A stretch of 10,586 nt of DNA from a virus (lineage: Duplodnaviria > Heunggongvirae > Uroviricota > Caudoviricetes). Shown in pieces: positions 888 to 10,586 of the stretch. Where the stretch lies: the IMG/VR virus record IMGVR_UViG_2693429700_000023; one strand, given 5' to 3'. Position numbers and translations under genes: made by a program. Under the pieces are notes generated by a model. That model did no database searches. It saw only the letters and a list, made by a program, of their open reading frames with translations, and had not been told where the DNA came from. Every line of letters starts with the position of its first letter. Within the stretch, counting starts at the first letter, position 1.

Positions 888-1053
888 GTCCAGTTAAAGT
901 GTAAGCCAGCGCCTTATCCATTAATCCCCGAGCAATTTCGTGGATCGTTGGCGCAACTCCTACCTCTGATTTTTTACGCTGCTCCTCCTGAATTTTCTTT
1001 ATCGCTTCCATTTGCTTCTCACTTATCAATACTGGCTTTACTGAAATAGCCAT
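880..1053 (-). CDS. Small hypothetical protein (57 aa), possibly a ribbon-helix-helix-type DNA-binding protein
   Basis: Found by hand translation (below the track length cutoff): MAISVKPVLISEKQMEAIKKIQEEQRKKSEVGVAPTIHEIARGLMDKALAYTLTGRG. ATG at 1053..1051 is preceded by SD AAGGGGG (1064..1058). The stop TAA (882..880) lies 4 nt before the ATG at 875 of the next gene. The strand-then-two-helices pattern suggests RHH, but this is inference. Confidence 0.45.
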   Translation of the reverse strand: MAISVKPVLISEKQMEAIKKIQEEQRKKSEVGVAPTIHEIARGLMDKALAYTLTGRG

Positions 1054-1066
1054 AACGCCCCCTTAG

Positions 1067-1092
1067 AACTGTATAAAACAACAGTTATTATA
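1067..1092 (-). promoter_or_regulatory. Candidate promoter -10 plus operator-like inverted repeat upstream of the 57-aa gene
   Basis: A perfect TATAAT on the minus strand (plus 1087..1092) sits about 35 nt upstream of the ATG at 1053. Immediately downstream is the inverted repeat AACTGT-N8-ACAGTT (1067..1086), between the -10 and the SD. No convincing -35 was found. Confidence 0.3.
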
Positions 1093-1145
1093 GTTTCACA
1101 AATCGCAATATTCATCATCGTAATTGCAAAATATGAAACAAATAG

Positions 1146-1181
1146 CACAAAAAAATGCCACCGCTCAGTAGCTGGTGGCAT
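1146..1181 (-). terminator. Intrinsic (rho-independent) terminator, minus strand
   Basis: The minus strand reads ATGCCACC-AGCTACTGAGC-GGTGGCAT followed by TTTTTTTGTG: an 8-bp GC-rich stem, 11-nt loop and 7-T tract. It lies downstream of the primase/ori region and upstream of the 57-aa gene promoter. Confidence 0.5.
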
Positions 1182-1375
1182 CGTTCTGTATGTCAGGTTT
1201 TGACAGGTTTTTTATGGACTCTAAAAACTATATTTATGGTGTCGCATTACTCTTCACGGCAGGCGCTTTCCAGTTCTGCCCTTGCTTCTGGCTCCATTGG
1301 TAATTTGATTCGCGATCAGCTATGCGGATGGTTTGCTGAACAGGCATAACAACTTCTCAAAGGCTGTTTTTTGAA

Positions 1376-1451
1376 CTACGAAAATTTCGTAGTGCTCACT
1401 TTCAAAAACGTCACGCCCTTGTACACAGGATTTTACGAAAGTCTCGTAAAA
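1376..1451. repeat. Two short perfect palindromes sharing a TACGA/TCGTA core
   Basis: CTACGAAA-A-TTTCGTAG at 1376..1392 and TTTTACGA-AAGTC-TCGTAAAA at 1431..1451. Both are just upstream of the iteron array; possible protein-binding sites. Confidence 0.5.
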
Positions 1452-1500
1452 CACTCTCTGATGCCAGCCAGGTGTTGTGCGCATCAATTCAGTCACATTG

Positions 1501-1613
1501 TGTTGGTTCAAAATACCGTGTTGTTGGTTCAGTGTTGGTTCAATAAAAAGAATAAAATCCTTATAAAACAATACTCTTTACAAATTGAACCAACTGAACC
1601 AACTGAACCAACA
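1501..1613. repeat. Iteron array (candidate origin of replication): 3 direct and 3 inverted copies of TGTTGGTTCA flanking an AT-rich spacer
   Basis: TGTTGGTTCA occurs at 1501..1510, 1522..1531 and 1533..1542. A ~43-bp AT-rich stretch follows (1543..1585), then three tandem TGAACCAAC units (the reverse complement) at 1586..1612. The array lies immediately downstream of the primase-helicase stop (1638). Confidence 0.6.
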
Positions 1614-1637
1614 CCTTTTCTACGCACATGAAGAAGC

Positions 1638-4394
1638 TCATTCTTCAGATGAGTTGTAATCTCCTGGCTGGTAATTGAGTACATAAACGTTTATTTGTCG
1701 TCCCTGAATACGTGGTGATTTTCTTTGGTATCCACGACCGCTGTTTGGTGGGGTTAGCATCCCGGCTTTTTTCAACACTTCAGCAAACTGTTTTGCGTTG
1801 AAACCACATGCGATCTCCTTTTCAAATGTGGCCGGGAATGTGTAGAAAATCATTGGGCTTTCGTCATGTTCTCCACGCTGACGGTATCCGGCTAAATCTT
1901 TGATTGGCAAATCTGCCGGGCTGTATGGAAATGGTGCAAAACGGCTAAGCCCATAGGCATTAAGAAATGCCTCCGTTTGTTCAATAATCTGCTGATGTTC
2001 TTTGTTACCTGTGCCGAACTCGCGCAACCATGCGTTATAGCTGTGCTGTATCGCATCACGGCATGTCTGAGCATCCCAGCCTGTTACAACCTCGCCTAAC
2101 AGCAATGCGGCCTCCAGAATGGCAAATCGCGCGGCTACACGGTGAACCTGCTCACCATAATCGGATGGAATCAGGCTTCTCCATCTGCTTTCGCAGTCAC
2201 GAACAGTTTTAATAGCCTGTTGCTGGTGGTCTGCCAGCCATTTAATCCACTCACGCCCGGCTGCGCCGTGGTGATGCTGGTAAGCGTCTTTCAGTGCGTC
2301 TGCGTGCTGTTTTCCGTTCTGGTAATCGTGAAAGCGTACTGCTTTACTCAACGGAATATTCAGCAGTCGCACCAGTTGCCCGGCTTTGGTTTTTCGCCCG
2401 GAAGTAGCGATAAATGTTTCTAAATCCATTTCTCCAGTGCTGATTGCCACTGTACGCCAGCGTTTTAGATCCCGGTTTCCACCATCTTTAGCGCCTTGCA
2501 GTTTCCCTACACCGTTAAATAACGCATAGGCAGACTGTGAAACACTGACAGGATCAGCGCCCTGACCAACTTCATCAAGCGGCATTAGTCCGTCATTGTG
2601 GGCGGCGGCTTCATTTGCCAGCCCCAGCGCGGTTCCGTACCACGTCAGCCGCAGTAAATCAGGGTTGCCGTATAAGCTGCTCGCCACGTTTGCCGTGGTG
2701 GTCTTACCTGCGCTCGACTGCTCATAGAAATGAATGCCGAACCCGTCAGCGCCCACCAGCCCAATCAATGGCGCTGCCAGTGCTGCGCCGATCCCGATCA
2801 TCATTGAATAGTTACCAAAGGCCAGACGCGCCACGTTATCACGCCAGCTTTTCGCGCTCCCTGAGACGGTATATCCGGCTGCGGCTGAGCTTCTCCCGCT
2901 GAACAGCACAGGATTTTCAGGTGTTCCGATGATTTCCCCATCAGGCATGATGTACGCTCCGCATTGCCAGCCAGTGGCATGAGCAACACGCCACAATTCA
3001 CGAGAGCCACTGCGTTGTAGCCAGTCTGCCAGTATTGCTCTGAGGCTGCTTTTGGTCGTGACATTTACCCCACCAGCTTTAAGTGTGCGCCATCCTTCAC
3101 GTTCACCAATATCAGCCAGTGGAATGGCAGCGGTTGTCGGCGTTTCAGAACCAAACGACAGCCAGCGAAGAATGAGATACTGGTCTTTATCGTCTCTGCC
3201 AGTACCGATAACGCTTAACGGAGAACATAACCAGCTTTCGTTATTGATGATTTCTCCACTCTGGCTGTCAGCTCTCGGAGATACCCAATAAATACCATCC
3301 TCGCGGCTTTCTATTCTTGGTTTCAGTGGGTCGGTATCCATAACCTTAAAATCGCTTCCCTCAATGGTCTGTGGCTGCTGTTTCACGCCATTACCCTGTG
3401 GTTGGTACATTGACTTATTGAACGCTTCTGTGGCGCATTTAATGCCGTGTTTTTGGTGGTAATCATTCCAGTCTGCTTTGTGATCTGTCGGGGGTAATGC
3501 CACCCATCCAGAAACAGATAAAGCTGCTTTTTCTGCTGCTATTCTCCCCGTGTTTTGTCTTCCTTCGCTGTGGTCGTTATCCGCAGCAATGATGATTTGT
3601 GCTGAAGGAAATTTATCCCGCAGTACCTGGGCGACATATAACAGGTTCCCGGCATCAATCGCCGCCACTGTCAGCGATTCTGGACGAATTAAATGGGCAG
3701 ATAATGCCGTTGCCAGCCCTTCTGCGATTAAGATGCTCTGTGTTGTTTCTGGTGCGTTTATGGCGTGATATGCCCCTCGCTTTGCTGAACCTGTCAGGAG
3801 TCTTTTTTCACCATGTGAGGTAATAGTCTGTGCTGCTGTGACTGCGCCGGATTTATCCACCAGCGCCAGCAACAGAGATCCATCGGGCAACACTGGGAAT
3901 GTAAAATCACCTACCCCTTTCGCAACCAGATAATCAGATTTGCCGTTTACAGCCTTTCTGCGCATGTCATCAAACTGACGGGAAAACGTATCCCGTCTTT
4001 GTTGTTCGTCCTTCTCTGCCCTTTTCAGGCGCTCCTGTTCGCGTCGCTGGCGCTCGGTTTCCAGTTGTTCCCGTTTCTGGCTGGTGGCTTCTGGTGTTTC
4101 CGTTGTCCGGTAATCAATACCCAGAACATCAGCGGCAAGAAGCGCCGCCTCTGTTGTGTCGCAGTTATTTACGCGTTTAATTAAATCCAGCCCATCACCA
4201 GCGCCGCACTGATTACAGATGAAGCTACCGCGCCCGTTGTCGTCGAACCGGAATCGATCTTTGCCCCCACATGCAGGGCAGGGAGCATGACGGCGAGGAG
4301 AGTCAGGGACATTTATGTTCAGACAGCCCAGCACATGAGGCCAGTTGTTTTCAGACGCACTGATAACCTGACGGATAAGATCAATGTTTCGCAT
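1638..4394 (-). CDS. Primase-helicase-like replication protein (N-terminal Zn-ribbon, TOPRIM, C-terminal P-loop/DUF927-like domain), 918 aa
   Basis: The N-terminus has CPACGG...CNQCG (CxxC-N17-CxxC zinc ribbon), then a charged ER-rich linker. The TOPRIM signatures are present: a conserved Glu (IAEGLATA) and DxD (IIIAADNDHSEGR). Further on is a deviant P-loop (SSAGKTT). SD GGGGG lies 5 nt upstream of the ATG at 4394. The family call is from motif recognition, not a search. Confidence 0.88.
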   Translation of the reverse strand: MRNIDLIRQVISASENNWPHVLGCLNINVPDSPRRHAPCPACGGKDRFRFDDNGRGSFICNQCGAGDGLDLIKRVNNCDTTEAALLAADVLGIDYRTTETPEATSQKREQLETERQRREQERLKRAEKDEQQRRDTFSRQFDDMRRKAVNGKSDYLVAKGVGDFTFPVLPDGSLLLALVDKSGAVTAAQTITSHGEKRLLTGSAKRGAYHAINAPETTQSILIAEGLATALSAHLIRPESLTVAAIDAGNLLYVAQVLRDKFPSAQIIIAADNDHSEGRQNTGRIAAEKAALSVSGWVALPPTDHKADWNDYHQKHGIKCATEAFNKSMYQPQGNGVKQQPQTIEGSDFKVMDTDPLKPRIESREDGIYWVSPRADSQSGEIINNESWLCSPLSVIGTGRDDKDQYLILRWLSFGSETPTTAAIPLADIGEREGWRTLKAGGVNVTTKSSLRAILADWLQRSGSRELWRVAHATGWQCGAYIMPDGEIIGTPENPVLFSGRSSAAAGYTVSGSAKSWRDNVARLAFGNYSMMIGIGAALAAPLIGLVGADGFGIHFYEQSSAGKTTTANVASSLYGNPDLLRLTWYGTALGLANEAAAHNDGLMPLDEVGQGADPVSVSQSAYALFNGVGKLQGAKDGGNRDLKRWRTVAISTGEMDLETFIATSGRKTKAGQLVRLLNIPLSKAVRFHDYQNGKQHADALKDAYQHHHGAAGREWIKWLADHQQQAIKTVRDCESRWRSLIPSDYGEQVHRVAARFAILEAALLLGEVVTGWDAQTCRDAIQHSYNAWLREFGTGNKEHQQIIEQTEAFLNAYGLSRFAPFPYSPADLPIKDLAGYRQRGEHDESPMIFYTFPATFEKEIACGFNAKQFAEVLKKAGMLTPPNSGRGYQRKSPRIQGRQINVYVLNYQPGDYNSSEE

Positions 4395-4406
4395 TCTGGC
4401 CCCCGT

Positions 4407-5009
4407 TTAGTGCGTCACTGGTGCTTCTGGGATGCCGTTTTCGTTTAGTTCGGCAATAAAGCTGTTGTGAAGATCGGCAAGCACTTCTCGCCCAAACGAA
4501 GTGAGTGTTCCCTGTTCGACATCGAACATGTTGCTGTAAAAAATGATGGCATTCTTTGTTCCGACATCAACACCATATTTCTCGATCATTGCGCCCTCAA
4601 TGTTGTTTGCCATAGCGAGGCGCTCTGCTACTGGATACAGCGGCATGGCGACGATGCCATTGGAATAAACAGAAACCACGGAATGATTGCCACTGTCATC
4701 AATAATGCTGACGGTGCCGTTTTCCTTTCTCATTTCATTGATGAATGCTGTTGCTATCAGCCAGCGCCACATAATCACGTGATGCTGTGATGTGTAATCG
4801 AAATATCCCTGGTTGCCGCCACTGGCAATAGCGAGATGTATAAACATGCCTTCATCTGGTTTATCGTCATAATCCCCGGCATCCAGACGATTTACGGCAT
4901 CAATATATGAGACGGTCTCAACGCGTTCTGTCATGCCATCGTTGCTGCGGTGCATGATGTTTACGCCGTCAGGCGTTGCTTCTGCATGGAAGGTTAAGAA
5001 ATTATTCAT
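4407..5009 (-). CDS. Hypothetical acidic protein (200 aa)
   Basis: The track ORF is 4407..5114, but I prefer the internal ATG at 5009 (MNNFLTFHAE...). It has SD GAGG 6 nt upstream and makes an ATGAATAA overlap with the stop of the upstream gene, whereas the longer N-terminal extension is Cys/Trp-rich and overlaps the neighbour. About 29 D/E versus 11 K/R. No family recognised. Confidence 0.6.
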   Translation of the reverse strand: MNNFLTFHAEATPDGVNIMHRSNDGMTERVETVSYIDAVNRLDAGDYDDKPDEGMFIHLAIASGGNQGYFDYTSQHHVIMWRWLIATAFINEMRKENGTVSIIDDSGNHSVVSVYSNGIVAMPLYPVAERLAMANNIEGAMIEKYGVDVGTKNAIIFYSNMFDVEQGTLTSFGREVLADLHNSFIAELNENGIPEAPVTH

Positions 5010-5223
5010 GTTTCGCCTCGCCTGAATGATTCTGTAACTCATATTTGCCCAACAATTCGTCCGCTTCCTGAATAGCTTCTGGTACGCCATTGAGCAGTGA
5101 CATAACCGCGCCAATCATTAACTTGTCTCTGTTGCTGGGGCTGGCCCCTTCAAGCCAGAACCCTAAAACAGTCTGAACCTGTTCGATGCGACATTGCGCT
5201 TCAATGAGCTGGATGTTGGTCAT
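5002..5223 (-). CDS. Hypothetical small protein (73 aa)
   Basis: Track ORF with SD GGAGAG 7 nt upstream of the ATG at 5223. Its start overlaps the upstream stop (ATGA) and its stop overlaps the downstream start (ATGAATAA). Net acidic. Confidence 0.5.
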   Translation of the reverse strand: MTNIQLIEAQCRIEQVQTVLGFWLEGASPSNRDKLMIGAVMSLLNGVPEAIQEADELLGKYELQNHSGEAKHE

Positions 5224-5483
5224 TTCGCACTCTCCACATCGATTAAACCGATATCTATCAGGGAGGTAACTTTTTGTAGCCAGCTATTGATTACTGTCGC
5301 CTGTTCCCCTCCCACCGAGGGAACAATCTCATTCATCACATGAACCAGACCTGTGCGCGCTCTGGTAAGCCGTTCAGTCGCGCAATCTGCGGGAGTGAAT
5401 GTGTCTGGATATGGCTCTTCACGCCCCAGCAATGATTCAATTTCCAGCTCACACGGATGACGATAAATTAAGTTGATATTCAT
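5220..5483 (-). CDS. Hypothetical small protein (87 aa)
   Basis: Track ORF with SD GGGGGTG upstream of the ATG at 5483 and ATGA overlaps at both ends. Net acidic. Confidence 0.5.
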   Translation of the reverse strand: MNINLIYRHPCELEIESLLGREEPYPDTFTPADCATERLTRARTGLVHVMNEIVPSVGGEQATVINSWLQKVTSLIDIGLIDVESAK

Positions 5484-5674
5484 TTTTCACCCCCAAGAAT
5501 TACCAGCTCGGCACGGGCATCGTTAACCAAAGATGAGCACGCTTTAATCGCATCCACGACATCAGCAGCGTCCATTTCTTCAGCCGAAAGACTGACAGCA
5601 ACCAGGACAGCCGCTGCTTGCTCGATTAATTGAAGTGCGGACGTAAGGCGAGGGGTATTAATTGAGTTATTCAT
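5480..5674 (-). CDS. Hypothetical small protein (64 aa)
   Basis: The track ORF is 5480..5731; I prefer the internal ATG at 5674 ([10 protein letters not shown]...), which has SD GGGGG upstream and overlaps the upstream stop as ATGAATAA. Predicted helical and acidic. Confidence 0.45.
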   Translation of the reverse strand: MNNSINTPRLTSALQLIEQAAAVLVAVSLSAEEMDAADVVDAIKACSSLVNDARAELVILGGEK

Positions 5675-5885
5675 TGGTTGCCCCCGTTTTTCCTGGCATT
5701 TCGCCACCTTCCAGCAGGAAATGAACGTCACGAACGGCGAGATCCAATATCGCGAGTAACGCCTTCAGCCTTTCGTCTCGTGAGGGAGAGTTGCTCACCA
5801 GAATGTCGTTAATCACTTCTGTCAGTGTGATGATCTGGCTTGTGCGTTCGAGGGGATCCATATGCACATCGTAGGTTTTAATCAT
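5667..5885 (-). CDS. Hypothetical small protein (72 aa), modelled as a separate gene in the 3' part of the 355-codon ORF
   Basis: The internal ATG at 5885..5883 ([15 protein letters not shown]...) is preceded by a strong SD GGAGGTGG and overlaps the stop of the frame-B gene as ATGATTAA. Codon usage from here to the stop at 5667 looks coding. This is an alternative model to the full 355-aa ORF. Confidence 0.45.
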   Translation of the reverse strand: MIKTYDVHMDPLERTSQIITLTEVINDILVSNSPSRDERLKALLAILDLAVRDVHFLLEGGEMPGKTGATNE

Positions 5886-6734
5886 GTGCCACCTCCATGC
5901 GGATACGACCAGCAAAAAAGCAGACGTGATCGCGCACCAGAGAACGGCGAGCATCGCGTTCAGACTCGGCAGCAATATGATGAATTTTGGCGGTAATTGT
6001 CGGGCAATCGCGGCGAACTGCGGCGATAATCCAGATAAATTGCGGTTTTTGGGTAGGGGTAGTAGCCAGCATGTGGCAGCCTCCATTCGATAGCATGTAA
6101 CGCTACCACCGGAAACGCCAATTTCGCTGGTGGTAGCCCAGACAGGGTTGGCGTAACCGGCTCGAATGGATACCGGCGCTTCCGAAGAAGCCCCTGCCTG
6201 AGCCACCATTGATTGACAAAGGCGCTGGATTATACACCAACGCCCAAAAAATGGGTGAGTCAGACCTACGACATAAAAAAAGACGCTCGGCGCGTCATAT
6301 GTCGCCATTCGATTTACCAGGACGCCAATCCCGGCACCCGTTTTATGAGGTGCCTTATAACCATAAACCGTGTTGCCGCATAACGGCAAGCTCTTTTTTA
6401 TGGACTCCGAAAACTCGCTATTGGAAGCACCAGATGCACAGTACATCGCGCTCATTTCGTTAACGTCACGCGCGTGGACGAATGTTTTTGTGGAGTCACT
6501 ACACGAGCGGAAGACATCATCTACGACCAGAAATTTTCTGGCGCAGCCGCTGACCTTCTCAATGCTAATATCATCGCCCGAGATTTCTGATATGGTTAAG
6601 GCATCCGTTCCGACCACCAGCAAATGATAAACTTTGCTTGTATCTGCTGTATTAATGCCTGACTTTGCCGTCATATTGCTGGATTTTGGCGACATACCAG
6701 CCAGTGAAAATGTCTTCTTCTGGACGGTTAGCAT
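5667..6734 (-). CDS. Uninterrupted 355-codon ORF; the N-terminal ~220 codons look like a real unknown gene, 3' boundary unresolved
   Basis: ATG at 6734 has SD GGAGG 7 nt upstream and overlaps the upstream stop (ATGCTAA). The N-terminal region is protein-like and contains KFLVVDDVF (6510..6536). The frame stays open to 5667, but between about 6072 and 5886 the coding signal moves to another frame. The true product is therefore either a 355-aa fusion or a shorter protein with an unseen end. Confidence 0.45.
5878..6072 (-). CDS. Hypothetical small protein (64 aa) in a different frame from the 355-codon ORF
   Basis: Track ORF 5878..6096; I prefer the second ATG at 6072 ([16 protein letters not shown]...), which has SD GGAGG 7 nt upstream. 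This frame uses common codons with G-rich first positions, whereas the overlapping frame of the 355-codon ORF is Leu/Pro/Ser-rich with rare codons (CTA, TTA, CCC, CGA, ATA, AGG). Confidence 0.5.
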   Translation of the reverse strand: MLATTPTQKPQFIWIIAAVRRDCPTITAKIHHIAAESERDARRSLVRDHVCFFAGRIRMEVAHD

Positions 6735-6910
6735 TTGTTAACCTCCGCGAACTCCTTCATGAAACGCGCCAGCGGTTGTACGCATGGCGATTGATACCCG
6801 TCGCGATAAAACGTCACTCGGTTGTGAGACACGCTTTCGACAGTAACGAGTGCTCCGTGGGCATCTTTGTAGCGTTTTTGTGGTTGTGGTGTTCCTGTTG
6901 GCTTAGACAT
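6728..6910 (-). CDS. Hypothetical small protein (60 aa)
   Basis: The track ORF is 6728..6997; I prefer the internal ATG at 6910 (MSKPTGTPQPQKRYK...), which has SD GGAGGTGG upstream and overlaps the antirepressor stop as ATGTCTAA. Its own stop overlaps the next start. Confidence 0.45.
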   Translation of the reverse strand: MSKPTGTPQPQKRYKDAHGALVTVESVSHNRVTFYRDGYQSPCVQPLARFMKEFAEVNKC

Positions 6911-7736
6911 TGACCACCTCCAGACGCTTGGCGAGCCAGCGTTGCGACAGGCGGGTGAGTTCTCCTTTGCGCTGCTCATATTCCATGCCCATATCAATTA
7001 ACGTGATATTGGTGCTTTCGAGATATGAGAGGTGCTCAAGCTGTTCTGCGTTCATATGGTCGCGAGGTTCGCCAGAATAGCCATTTATCCGCGCCCACTG
7101 CTTAGCAGTTAGCCCACCAAGAACGATACGAGAAATCATATTGCTCTCGTTTGTGTAGTGGTGTTGCTGCGTCGTTTTACCCATCTCGGCACGGGCCATA
7201 TTCAGCGCATCGCACATTGGCTTAAAGTTGTTTGCGGCACTGATACGGGCTTTTAGCTGGCGACGATAGCGGGCGGCGATTTCAGGCACGCTACGCTGTA
7301 ATTCTTCCTCGCACTGGATGAAATAACGGCGGATAGCGCGACCCTGATCATTGCGTTCGATCATTGCCAGTTCTTTCGCCATTCCGACACTTAACAGATA
7401 GTCTTTGCCGGGTCTGCCAGACTGCTTAATCTTGCTGTAAGCCGCGCCATTCGGGCTTTTCCCCAAATTTGGGGAAATTGTTTTATGGACTGAGTAATCG
7501 TGCCCAATGGTGAAGTCATATTCAGAGATGCGATCAGTGATCCATGTAGAGAAGTCTTTTCCCACGCCCAACGCTTTGTGTAACGCTTTTGCGCTAACAA
7601 TATTGGTTTCACGCCCACCGATATGACCAGGAATAACCGGGACAATTGCGGCAAATTCATTACCGTTAATTGTGCCCAGAGAGGCGTTCAGATGAGGGGC
7701 GGCCTCAGAAATTAATCTGCTTTTTTCGATGTTCAT
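6903..7736 (-). CDS. Phage antirepressor-like protein with an AntA-type N-terminal domain (277 aa)
   Basis: The N-terminal half matches the AntA/AntB antirepressor pattern as I recall it: SAKALHKALGVGKDFSTWITDRISEYDFTIGHDY ... DYLLSVGMAKELAMIERNDQGRAIRRYFIQCEE. SD GGAGA lies 7 nt upstream of the ATG at 7736. The C-terminal half is unassigned. Confidence 0.7.
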   Translation of the reverse strand: MNIEKSRLISEAAPHLNASLGTINGNEFAAIVPVIPGHIGGRETNIVSAKALHKALGVGKDFSTWITDRISEYDFTIGHDYSVHKTISPNLGKSPNGAAYSKIKQSGRPGKDYLLSVGMAKELAMIERNDQGRAIRRYFIQCEEELQRSVPEIAARYRRQLKARISAANNFKPMCDALNMARAEMGKTTQQHHYTNESNMISRIVLGGLTAKQWARINGYSGEPRDHMNAEQLEHLSYLESTNITLIDMGMEYEQRKGELTRLSQRWLAKRLEVVNV

Positions 7737-7748
7737 TTTCAGTCTCCG

Positions 7749-8180
7749 TTAGGCGGCGTTAAACGCGTCCGGGTAGAGTTTCAGAATGTCGGCAATTTCC
7801 TGCTGAGAAAGTCCGTTGTGATCATTTATGCTCGCAAGATGGTTAACATGAGTGATCACTTTCAGAACATCACCACGGCAGGAGAAACGGTAGCGAAGGT
7901 GTGTTCCGATACCATCAGGATTCTTTTCGTCGATACGCTCCAGAGTGATTCCAAGCTGGCGTTCTAACTCTGTTGCATAGTTACGACCAGAAGACAGACG
8001 GCAGTAGCGAAGAATGTCATTTTCTGTCCATCCCTCTATACCAGTACGCAGCATATAGACTCTGGCACGATGCTTTTTCGGTGTGCGCTTTGGTGCTTGA
8101 AGGGATTTTGTCAGGGGCGTAACATCAGATACGCGAATATCTGAATTAGCCGCCTGTAATGGGCGGTTTTTCTTTTCCAT
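7749..8180 (-). CDS. Hypothetical protein (143 aa)
   Basis: Track ORF. Its ATG at 8180 shares one base with the alpA stop (TGATG) and is preceded by GAGGTGG encoded in the alpA C-terminus. Basic N-terminus; no family recognised. Confidence 0.55.
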   Translation of the reverse strand: MEKKNRPLQAANSDIRVSDVTPLTKSLQAPKRTPKKHRARVYMLRTGIEGWTENDILRYCRLSSGRNYATELERQLGITLERIDEKNPDGIGTHLRYRFSCRGDVLKVITHVNHLASINDHNGLSQQEIADILKLYPDAFNAA

Positions 8181-8383
8181 CAGGCCACCTCGTCTCTAGA
8201 TTCTAATATACACTTCTCAATCCATTCATCTATTTCAGACTCAACAAAAGCAATTGCCCGACTTCCAATTTTTACCTGTTTAGGGAACCTCCCCTGACTA
8301 ATAAGACGATAAATCCATGCTTTGCTATAACCAGTTCGCCTTTGAACTTCAGAGAGACGAATTAATGAATTGTAATTAGCCAT
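8180..8383 (-). CDS. alpA: AlpA-family (prophage regulatory / excisionase-like HTH) transcriptional regulator, 67 aa
   Basis: A small protein with an HTH-like core (IRLSEVQRRTGYSKAWIYRLISQGRFPKQVKIGSRAIAFVESEIDEW) resembling AlpA-type regulators, placed directly downstream of an integrase remnant as in P4-like and PICI-like elements. Confidence 0.75.
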   Translation of the reverse strand: MANYNSLIRLSEVQRRTGYSKAWIYRLISQGRFPKQVKIGSRAIAFVESEIDEWIEKCILESRDEVA

Positions 8384-8470
8384 TTATTAATATCCTGTAC
8401 TAATGACGCAATAACTCCCTCCTGCAACGAATGGCGAGAGTTTTATTTGCATCAAATGTCGAATACGCCA

Positions 8471-8503
8471 AAGACCACAATATGAAAAACATATTGCGGT
8501 CTT
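8471..8503. promoter_or_regulatory. 33-bp near-perfect palindrome (operator-like) in the int-alpA intergenic region
   Basis: AAGACCACAATATG-AAAAA-CATATTGCGGTCTT: 14-bp arms with one mismatch, about 90-120 bp upstream of the alpA start. A palindromic TTTATAAA abuts it (8503..8510). Confidence 0.4.
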
Positions 8504-8662
8504 TTATAAAAGATAGTCAGATTGTTTTGGTTTGTTTGCTCCACAAGGGTAGAGCTACCCTGCATTTCGGCAGGATCACGCTATTAGGCGTGACATCCAG
8601 TAGTTTTAAAGAACGCCCTTTTTCAGGGCATGGTGGGCAGGCAAGAGAGCAATTGCGCTTTG

Positions 8663-8977
8663 TCAGCGCCGTAGATTCATATTTGAATCATTGTATGTTT
8701 CCCGGGCAATCTTTTCCTCTCGTTTCGCTTCCATCGGATCGATACCACCAGCGATACCTCTTTTCGCATCTTCACGTTTTGCCCGAGCATCGGCTAGAGT
8801 AACCTCAGGATACACACCTAGTGCCAATAGCTTCTCTTTACCAGCTACACGATATTTAAGTCGCCAGTATTTACCTCCATTAGGTTTTACCAAGAGATAC
8901 AAACCGCCACCATCGGCCAGCTTGTAAGCCTTCTCTTTTGGCTTGGCTGTGTCTATTTGACGGGCATTGAGTTTCAC
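8663..8977 (-). pseudogene. Tyrosine integrase (P4-family) remnant: N-terminal arm-binding region only, 104 codons
   Basis: The ORF (GTG start at 8977, SD GGAGGT upstream) encodes KLNARQIDTAKPKEKAYKLADGGGLYLLVKPNGGKYWRLKYR..., which resembles the N-terminal arm-type DNA-binding domain of tRNA-associated integrases. Full-length enzymes are about 400 aa, and only 279 bp remain before alpA, so the catalytic domain is absent. Confidence 0.7.
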
Positions 8978-9042
8978 TTGGGGGTACCTCCACTAAACCG
9001 AACAGCAAATACCCCCATAAGTACCCCCATCTGACCGTAGAT

Positions 9043-9125
9043 TTTGAGGGACTTTAGTAGACGTCAAAAGACGAACGGGGCTTTAATACGCGGATTATAA
9101 GGGGTTTTGAAAGACTTTAGTAGAC
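9043..9125. repeat. Direct repeats in the attL-proximal arm (candidate arm-type integrase or accessory-protein binding sites)
   Basis: TTTGAGGGACTTTAGTAGAC (9043..9062) and TTTGAAAGACTTTAGTAGAC (9106..9125) match at 18 of 20 positions. Nearby, TACCCCCAT occurs twice (9010..9018 and 9022..9030), with an inverted copy (GGGGGTA) at 8980..8986 next to the int start. Confidence 0.4.
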
Positions 9126-9142: not shown

Positions 9143-9218
9143 TGGTGCCGATAATAGGAGTCGAACCTACGACCTTCGCATTACGAATGCGCTGCTCTAC
9201 CAACTGAGCTATATCGGC
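9143..9218 (-). tRNA. thrW: tRNA-Thr (anticodon CGU)
   Basis: The reverse complement is a 76-nt tRNA with a 7-bp acceptor stem (GCCGATA/TATCGGC), a D-arm GCTCAGTTGGTAGAGC, anticodon loop TTCGTAA (anticodon CGT), T-arm GGTTCGACTCC and a 3' CCA. The CCA end (9143..9145) faces the mobile-element side. Confidence 0.95.
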
Positions 9219-9332: not shown

Positions 9333-10586
9333 TTACGCACGAATGGTGTAATCACCAATGCCGATCCACTTGTAAGTGGTCAGTGCTTCCAGCCCCATTG
9401 GGCCACGCGCGTGGAGTTTTTGTGTGCTTACCGCCACTTCCGCACCCAGACCAAACTGGCCGCCGTCGGTAAAACGCGTAGAGGCGTTAACGTAAACAGC
9501 GGACGAATCCACTTCGTTAACAAAACGCTGGGCGTTGCGCATATCGCGGGTCAGGATCGCATCGGAGTGTTGTGTGCCGTGTTCACGAATATGGGCGATG
9601 GCATCGTCAAGATCGCTGACGATTTTGACGTTCAAATCTAATGACAGAAACTCATCGTCATACTCTTCGGCTTTAACAGCAACCACCTTCGCAGGGCCTG
9701 CCTGCAACTGCGCCAGTGCAGCTGCATCTGCGTGTAATGTCACGCCGCTTTCCGCCATTTGTTTGCTTAATGCGGGCAGGAAGCTATCGGCGATGTTTTT
9801 ATTCACCAGCAACGTTTCAACCGTATTACATGTGCTCGGACGCTGAGTTTTCGCGTTGACGATCACTTTTAATGCTTCAGCGATCTCTACACTTTCATCA
9901 ACGTAAATATGGCATACGCCTATACCACCTGTGATCACCGGGATTGTCGACTGTTCACGGCACAGTTTATGCAAACCAGCGCCACCACGCGGGATCAGCA
10001 TGTCGATGTATTTATCCATACGCAGCATTTCACTGACCAGCGCACGGTCAGGATTATCAATCGCCTGCACGGCACCCGCCGGTAAGCCGCAGGATTTCAG
10101 GGCGTCCTGAATCACCGCCACCGTTGCAGCGTTAGTGCGACACGTTTCTTTGCCACCGCGCAGGATCACCGCATTACCGGTTTTCAGGCACAGCGAAGCG
10201 ACATCAACCGTCACGTTCGGGCGCGCTTCATAAATCACGCCAATAACCCCCAGCGGTACGCGACGACGCTCAAGACGCAGGCCGCTGTCCAGTACGCTGC
10301 CATCGATTACCTGCCCCACCGGATCGGCGAGGTTACACACCTGGCGCACATCATCGGCAATGCCTTTCAGCCGTGCGGGCGTCAGTGCCAGACGGTCAAG
10401 CATCGCTTCGCCAAGGCCATTGGCACGCGCGTCAGCAACATCCTGGGCGTTAGCGTTGAGGATGATTTCGCTTTGTGCTTCCAGTTCATCGGCGATTTTT
10501 TCCAGCACGCGATTTTTTTCGCGGCTGGAGAGTTGCGCTAATTTATACGAGGCTTGCTTCGCGGCAATGCCCATTTGTTCCAGCAT
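9333..10586 (-). CDS. proA: Gamma-glutamyl phosphate reductase (glutamate-5-semialdehyde dehydrogenase), 417 aa
   Basis: The translation ([38 protein letters not shown] ... [14 protein letters not shown]) matches enterobacterial ProA as I recall it, at the correct 417-aa length. The ATG is the last three bases of the window. Confidence 0.95.

Follow-up and report, generated by a model that had tools for sequence, protein, structure and literature searches.

A constrained element of CUS-3-type terS recurs in an EcCIMP1-type island and is a candidate packaging-site mimic

The DNA analysed here, called the window throughout, is a stretch of 10,586 nucleotides from a virus of the Caudoviricetes (IMG/VR record IMGVR_UViG_2693429700_000023). 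It is an EcCIMP1-type PICI at thrW. A tRNA-Thr gene lies beside proA, and int, alpA, an antirepressor gene, a TOPRIM/DUF927 primase gene and ejection-protein genes are all present (table 1), together with an Icd-like gene and several small genes, also on the minus strand. Capsid and terminase genes were not found in the window island. Integration site, gene order and the motif copies described below are those of EcCIMP1, and identity to that element is 94-98% over positions 905-8626 (98% over 905-4394 and 94% over 4409-8626). The PICI EcCIMP1 measures 20 kb and resides in E. coli MP1, where it has integrated at the tRNA-Thr gene beside proA (PMC11773190). The P22-like phage Kapi1 induces and transfers it, at a very low transduction frequency, by a packaging mechanism that its authors could not work out; many 'Type C' PICIs look defective for want of a packaging module (PMC11773190). 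The window copy differs from EcCIMP1 in two respects. (i) Its integrase gene is truncated to an N-terminal (arm-binding) fragment, where relatives have a gene of 1,215 bp, and about 1.1 kb is missing (window 8400-8977). (ii) The left end of an IS3-family (IS629-like) element, with the start of a transposase gene, occupies positions 1-141 and truncates the gp20-like ejection-protein gene, where intact relatives go on into gp16-like 'injection protein' genes. The island copy in the window is probably immobile because of the truncated integrase and the IS insertion.

Table 1. Features of the window, with Sf6/Kapi1-type units of two related islands in their own coordinates.
Feature	Position	Strand	Details
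P22 gp20-like ejection-protein gene	93-887	minus	cut by IS3-family end
57-aa gene	880-1053	minus	
Copy 1 of the 22-mer	1208-1229	plus TTTTTTATGGACTCTAAAAACT, minus AGTTTTTAGAGTCCATAAAAAA	intergenic; 14-nt core GAGTCCATAAAAAA identical to CUS-3 terS
Iterons	1502-1612		just downstream of primase gene; GTTGGTTCA three times, then inverse TGAACCAAC three times, 9-nt spacing
TOPRIM/DUF927 primase gene	1638-4394	minus	
C4 target boxes by Icd-like gene	6083-6089, 6115-6122		CGAATGG, ATTGGCGT
C4/CI antisense immunity RNA	6126-6213	minus	Rfam RF01695, 79.5 bits
C4 loops complementary to boxes	6148-6154, 6163-6169		
isrK-family RNA	6276-6353	minus	Rfam RF01394, 67 bits; holds upstream C4 target boxes
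C4 target boxes in isrK	6305-6311, 6322-6329		CGAATGG, ATTGGCGT
Putative sigma-70-like isrK/C4 promoter	6360-6389	minus	-35 TTGCCG 6384-6389, 18-nt spacer, -10 TATGGT 6360-6365; predicted from sequence only
Copy 2 of the 22-mer	6394-6415	plus TTTTTTATGGACTCCGAAAACT, minus AGTTTTCGGAGTCCATAAAAAA	24/24 nt identical to CUS-3 terS codons 48-55
Motif portion of copy 2 apart from A-tract			GAGTCCAT
P22-type terS (gene 3) fragment	6456-6590	plus	antisense to island operon; protein-level similarity
DUF4222 gene	6728-6913	minus	
AntA/AntB antirepressor gene	6903-7736	minus	
Partial third copy, 11-mer	7481-7491	plus TTTTATGGACT, minus AGTCCATAAAA	in AntA/AntB antirepressor gene
alpA	8180-8383	minus	
P4-type integrase gene, truncated	8663-8977	minus	104 aa
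tRNA-Thr gene	9143-9218	minus	
att core	9150-9159		TCCTATTATC
proA	9333-10586	minus	
Sf6/Kapi1-type units in EcCIMP1 (L322)	2358-2375, 4112-4129, 4400-4417		TTTyGnGACAAGTACGCG
Sf6/Kapi1-type units in island L125	16309, 19015, 19301		TTTyGnGACAAGTACGCG

Several further repeats are found in and around the island. A 21-nt direct repeat (TTTTGAGGGACTTTAGTAGAC and TTTTGAAAGACTTTAGTAGAC, 90% identical) lies at 9042-9062 and 9105-9125, between the integrase fragment and the tRNA gene, and its two copies are possibly arm-type sites of the integrase. A second, inverted iteron set (80% identical) is present at the far end of EcCIMP1 (L322 2729-2839), an arrangement that recalls the ori and crr of P4. 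Two palindromes occupy the stretch between the iterons and copy 1 of the 22-mer: CTACGAAAATTTCGTAG (1376-1392), which is perfect over 17 nt, and its imperfect relative TTTTACGAAAGTCTCGTAAAA (1430-1452). The iterons are unrelated in sequence to the 22-mer, and the notion that the latter is itself a replication iteron was rejected.

The recurrence of the 22-mer had been claimed in an earlier note on this DNA, and copies 1 and 2 lie where that note placed them. They share 20 of 22 positions on the same strand. Such a pair is unlikely to have arisen by chance, since a direct 22-mer repeat with two mismatches or fewer was found in only 2 of 300 windows simulated with a first-order Markov model (approx. 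0.7%). Copy 1 is intergenic, as the note held: the PGAP annotation has no CDS at the site, and in-frame stops occur immediately upstream. The primase/iteron region lies to one side of it and a terminator (1157-1172) to the other, and the 57-aa gene and the ejection-protein module follow downstream. The third, partial copy is indeed present in the antirepressor gene, and in EcCIMP1 as well, but its equivalence to the other two probably does not hold. The 11-mer is absent from the antirepressor homologues of other islands that have the main motif, and recurrence of any 11-mer sub-word of copies 1 and 2 within 10.6 kb, on either strand, has a probability of approximately 0.06. The figure of 0.005 expected occurrences quoted previously was post hoc and gives way to this fairer value. 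The third copy is probably a coincidence. Phased units of 10 bp, GTCAGGTTTT GACAGGTTTT, precede copy 1 (window 1189-1229) and may represent bent DNA or further binding sites. Three other islands (L013, L087 and L176) have a similar stretch, GACAGGTTTTGACAGGTT, some 100 nt away from their isrK-proximal motif, and a stretch of this kind also adjoins the second motif copy of L106, a 71-80% diverged relative.

Copy 2 is found just upstream of the presumed promoter of an immunity region of the P1/P4 C4-CI kind, a module that is complete in the window (isrK/a1b1 targets, C4 RNA and icd). One set of C4 target boxes is held by the isrK-family RNA. The second set coincides in part with the ribosome-binding site that serves the Icd-like gene (start codon ATG at 6072). 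This arrangement is the classical P1/P4 antisense immunity layout. The isrK/C4 promoter, which would be the equivalent of P4 PLE, is proposed from its -35 and -10 hexamers; a promoter scan called none at the copy-2 site. Relative to the 5' end of isrK, copy 2 spans -41 to -62. The motif is absent from phage isrK loci and from P4 itself, where no match was found within 6 mismatches though isrK and C4 are present. Nor is it complementary to the C4 loops, and a role as a C4 antisense target was discarded on that ground. Among 14 isrK-anchored island contexts, the core of the motif is invariant in 11 while the flanks vary; in the other three the core is replaced and the T-run is kept. The placement of copy 2 inside a gene, as first described, holds in part. 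The copy does lie within a 355-codon ORF (window 5667-6734, minus strand; 'ash family protein' in PGAP), but this ORF runs straight through isrK and C4, and its status as a gene is questionable. The Pfam family Phage_ASH matches only residues 124-232 of the ORF, which are the translation of the isrK/C4 RNAs. Many divergent islands nevertheless have the frame open over approximately 280-360 codons, which points either to selection for read-through translation or to a protein family founded on non-coding RNA.

The origin of the motif became apparent from its distribution. The pattern TTTTTTATGGACTCNNAAAACT is present in at least 120 viral contigs. Among the matches listed, most lie inside a gene of about 145 codons whose coding strand is opposite to the 22-mer as first given, and whose product reads ...PEF[S/L]ESIKKGK... 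at the motif. This gene is terS, which encodes the small terminase. Its product matches phrog_309 (E = 2e-68) and is 100% identical to the TerS of CUS-3, a P22-like phage, and the gene is located immediately upstream of terL. Read on the minus strand, the motif (AGTTTTnnGAGTCCATAAAAAA) shares 24-25 identical nt with codons 48-55 of CUS-3-type terS (24/24 nt in the window, at 6393-6416, and 25/25 nt in EcCIMP1). The rest of the contexts belong to P4-like or PICI islands, where the motif lies upstream of isrK; islands of the EcCIMP1 and L106 types carry it also after the primase region. A census of E. coli gave the same picture at genome scale. Of 5,426 complete genomes, 910 contain the motif, at one place in the median case and at no more than four. 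Only two contexts were encountered, the 'ash'/Icd island context and CUS-3-type terS, where the terS copies are annotated as 'hypothetical protein' or 'terminase' (one case was checked). These counts rule out a dispersed genomic repeat of the REP or ERIC kind, and frequent occurrence throughout host genomes, which would have spoken against the first description of the motif, is not seen. A string search for the motif sequence in the literature gave nothing relevant.

Within terS, the motif is constrained at the level of DNA. Homologues were gathered with degenerate protein patterns, so that codon choice was unbiased, and 55 representatives with less than 85% amino-acid identity were compared; entropy was printed for codons 30-75. 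Third-position entropy is approximately 1.8-2.0 bits at most codons and collapses only at codons 49 and 51-54. Codon 49 is TTT in 48 of 55 representatives. Glutamate at codon 51 is always encoded by GAG (36/36). The third base of codon 52 is C in all 55, with TCC in each of the 41 serine codons and GCC in the alanine variants, and that of codon 53 is A in 53 of 55, isoleucine, leucine and valine always being encoded by ATA, TTA or CTA, and GTA, respectively. Codon 54 is AAA in 40 of 48. The resulting pattern, TTT nnn GAG TCC nTA AAA, sits just past the coding region for the helix-turn-helix, and no further terS codon was flagged as synonymously frozen in the 55 representatives. Codon 55 is free (lysine in 35%, third-base entropy 1.98 bits). 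Phages of Acinetobacter, Riemerella (Bacteroidota) and E. coli share the string GAG TCC ATA AAA unchanged, and close variants occur in phages of Vibrio, Lactococcus and Pseudomonas. The constrained bases form a dyad, TTTnnnGA-G-TCnnnAAA, with the core GAGTCCATAAAA, and the two positions that differ among island copies fall within its unconstrained spacer. Since synonymous sites are frozen and identical across phages of three bacterial groups, these alignments identify the motif as a nucleic-acid element, not a protein motif; copy 1 is non-coding, which likewise makes DNA rather than protein the shared feature. Conservation of DNA had been proposed at the outset, and synonymous drift in homologous genes does not disrupt it. 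What the first reading missed was the origin of the motif in a terS gene of helper phages.

Segments of further terS types are present in the islands. In the window, 65 nt from copy 2, is a P22-type terS fragment whose TerS reading frame is preserved, with an in-frame deletion of 21 nt. Over 107 bp (6480-6586, plus strand) it is 86-92% identical to gene 3 of P22, IME10 and Bas106. The pac site of P22 is a 22-bp sequence inside gene 3 (PMC4669245), and window positions 6480-6501 align with the annotated site. With the published P22 pac/pseudo-pac pattern, window nucleotides 6481-6497 agree at 15 of 17 positions, the two mismatches falling on conserved ones, while the E. coli phage Bas106 agrees at 17 of 17 (pattern from PMC10996546; the comparison was made here). 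The TerS of Kapi1 is of the Sf6 type. Nucleotides 172-194 of Kapi1 terS, TTTCGCGACAAGTACGCGAAGGC, encode ..EDFRDKYAKA.., at a position homologous to EFSESIKKG of the CUS-3 type, and this segment is matched at 23 of 23 nt in island L106, beside a motif copy. Units of the Kapi1 type are found at three places in EcCIMP1 (17/18, 17/18 and 16/18 nt) and at three places in BKQ37E, an intact relative of the window island. Islands L004, L035, L080, L087 and L176 carry the unit upstream of the CUS-3-type motif and in the same orientation, at a distance of 46 or 87 nt. The units of EcCIMP1 and L125 listed in table 1 lie in that portion of the island which extends past the left end of the window, partly in a stretch of about 1 kb with no annotated gene. 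The Sf6-type patch also has reduced synonymous variation: TTT is kept in 12/12, GAC in 12/12, TAC in 11/12 and GCG in 10/12 homologues. Coming from a small set of 12 usable representatives with 55-99% identity, taken from a genome-wide sample, these counts are suggestive of synonymous constraint. An earlier sample with 90-100% identity was too uniform for the test. What the islands have gathered is thus precisely the constrained patch of each of three TerS types that P22-like phages use. A blastn search of four variable cassettes located upstream of the motif in other islands, as possible terS fragments, against 50,697 phage records returned nothing.

A conserved DNA site inside terS, by the region that encodes the helix-turn-helix, is what a pac site looks like. 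For this reason the frozen element, which lies in codons 48-55 of a gene directly upstream of terL and is the only patch of its kind among the 55 representatives, is most likely the pac site at which CUS-3-type TerS would start headful packaging. On balance, and with modest confidence, the 22-mer is interpreted as a copy of this helper element that may function as such in the satellite. Its identity to terS, the constraint on the DNA, the confinement to terS and these islands and the joint presence of three terS-derived elements are observed; binding by TerS and a pac function, in CUS-3-type phages as in the satellite, are inferred. The following mechanism is envisaged. (i) A satellite that has no terminase gene carries pac mimics, two in the window and in the same orientation. 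(ii) The TerS of a helper would recognize the copies on replicated satellite DNA. (iii) Bound TerS would recruit TerL, and headful packaging of satellite DNA would follow, much as cos-carrying satellites are packaged with cos. (iv) The best helpers would be phages whose TerS type matches the units of the island. A packaging recognition site was among the options first listed for the motif, and it is the one that the evidence now favours. The binding partners suggested with it, AlpA, the 57-aa protein and the primase of the island, are not those to which the evidence points; the helper small terminase is the better candidate. Several findings count against the proposal. Kapi1, the only proven helper, has an Sf6-type and not a CUS-3-type TerS. 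In EcCIMP1 itself copy 2 is exact, but copy 1 has a substitution in its core (TTTTTTTTGGACTC), and many islands with copy 2 lack copy 1. The pac-like P22-type sequence departs from the published pattern at the two conserved positions noted above, and the variable cassettes of other islands have no DNA similarity to any of the phage records searched. Binding of TerS to pac oligonucleotides is weak in vitro and hard to demonstrate even for P22 (PMC9611059).

The position of copy 2 also counts against the packaging proposal, for an UP element or an activator site of the isrK promoter would be expected at precisely this place; so does the replacement of the core, with the T-run kept, in three of the 14 isrK-anchored contexts. 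Copy 2 might accordingly be an UP element or operator of a P4 PLE-like isrK/C4 promoter, its identity to terS being incidental or left over. An A-tract, AAAAAAGAG, fits the UP-element position at about -46 to -38, directly before the -35 hexamer of the presumed promoter. All class-A island promoters keep the T/A-run even where the core is replaced, and P4 has an A-tract at the equivalent place too. A promoter role would nevertheless leave unexplained why 18 nt are synonymously frozen in terS across bacterial phyla, why copy 1 exists with no recognizable promoter beside it, and why Sf6-type and P22-type terS-derived elements are neighbours; nor did the promoter scan call anything at copy 2. As a full account of the motif it is considered unlikely, although copy 2 could both act in a promoter and bind TerS.

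Alternatively, the terS-identical segments could be remnants or substrates of recombination between islands and P22-like phages, with no function in packaging. Such scars would fit the acquisition of the gp20- and gp16-like ejection genes. The island holds these phage-derived genes alongside the 107-bp terS fragment, the motif marks a boundary between conserved and variable island segments, and terminase gene segments are widely exchanged among P22-like phages (PMC4669245). In L106, two direct copies (reverse-complement coordinates 494 and 6818) flank an ejection-protein module that comprises the 57-aa gene, a DUF2824 gene and gp7/gp20/gp16-like genes. Scars should decay, however, whereas the core is invariant in the 11 contexts mentioned above. 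Units of two TerS types form ordered, co-oriented arrays at the fixed spacing of 46 or 87 nt, and the pieces retained are exactly the synonymously constrained patches, not random parts of terS. Recombination without a packaging role is also considered improbable.

Two other explanations fare worse. A programmed -1 frameshift at A_AAA_AAG, within ATA AAA AAG and followed by a hairpin, could be imagined for terS and the long 'ash' ORF. CUS-3 terS and that ORF do both have the heptamer A AAA AAG in the right frame, and each of the three window sites has a minus-strand hairpin after the motif. It is not this slippery heptamer that is conserved, since codon 55 varies freely in terS homologues while GAG TCC nTA is frozen, and a dnaX-type conserved in-frame X_XXY_YYZ signal was rejected on this basis. 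Copy 1 is outside any ORF, the hairpin comes after a spacer of just 3-5 nt, and no conservation of the hairpins is seen in terS, all of which makes frameshifting very improbable. Plus-strand terminators, formed by a hairpin and T-run before each copy, were likewise rejected, given the same lack of conservation in terS; the GATG...CATC arms of the island hairpins are conserved but do not covary. That the repeat is a functionless accident, as its low-complexity T and A runs and the chance-level third copy might suggest, is hardly credible and is refuted for copies 1 and 2 by the simulation, the exact 24-25 nt identity to terS, the spread over at least 120 viral contigs and the restriction to two contexts across 5,426 genomes.

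The packaging reading invites comparison with established systems. Like the pac site of P22, the 22-mer element is a short asymmetric site in the terS gene of the phage itself that would start headful packaging, and the P22-type terS fragment of the window spans the corresponding P22 position. It differs in sequence and in TerS type (CUS-3/phrog_309). P22 pac lies mid-gene, whereas the 22-mer element is located just after the helix-turn-helix coding region, at codons 49-54; pac function of the latter is deduced from synonymous-site constraint and not from genetics. In Sf6, Leavitt and co-workers are said to have placed the TerS recognition site within the DNA that encodes the DNA-binding domain of the protein itself. 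The islands resemble this case in that the proposed recognition site travels with the segment encoding the DNA-binding domain, and the Sf6/Kapi1 patch is homologous in position and has also been copied into islands; the evidence presented here differs in being comparative only. Satellites with a helper cos site include P4 with the cos of P2, cos-type SaPIs and E. coli PICIs such as EcCICFT073 (cos and Rpp). With these the window island shares the lack of its own terminase and a proposed reliance on a cis site that the helper terminase recognizes. Those elements use cos, whereas the island would mimic pac directly, apparently for several TerS specificities at once. Pac-type SaPIs and PLE encode their own TerS with its own pac. 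To our knowledge, the pac-type satellites described so far either encode their own TerS or, in the case of PICMI, are packaged in a manner that is unexplained. No Rpp, TerS or capsid-remodelling genes were found in the window island. The EcCIMP1 paper describes neither these motifs nor any pac site (PMC11773190).

A wider version of the packaging model is more speculative. The islands might carry ordered, co-oriented arrays of pac mimics for the CUS-3, Sf6/Kapi1 and P22 TerS types, giving them a multi-helper range, and binding of helper TerS might also switch the immunity/replication operon. With such an array at -41 to about -150 of the isrK/C4 promoter, bound TerS might couple late expression of the helper to satellite derepression and packaging. 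This extension is regarded as doubtful.

If the motifs are pac mimics, they would explain how a terminase-less satellite of pac-type phages is packaged. They would predict which helpers mobilize which islands, by the match of TerS type, and may explain the very low transfer of EcCIMP1 by Kapi1. The motif would also provide a candidate recognition site, at nucleotide level, for the very widespread phrog_309 TerS family, which has no defined pac site, and pac sites could be sought more generally by looking for synonymous sites that are frozen. Such a nucleotide-level candidate for phrog_309 would be new, and so, among satellites, would the mimicry of pac sites, apparently of several TerS types.
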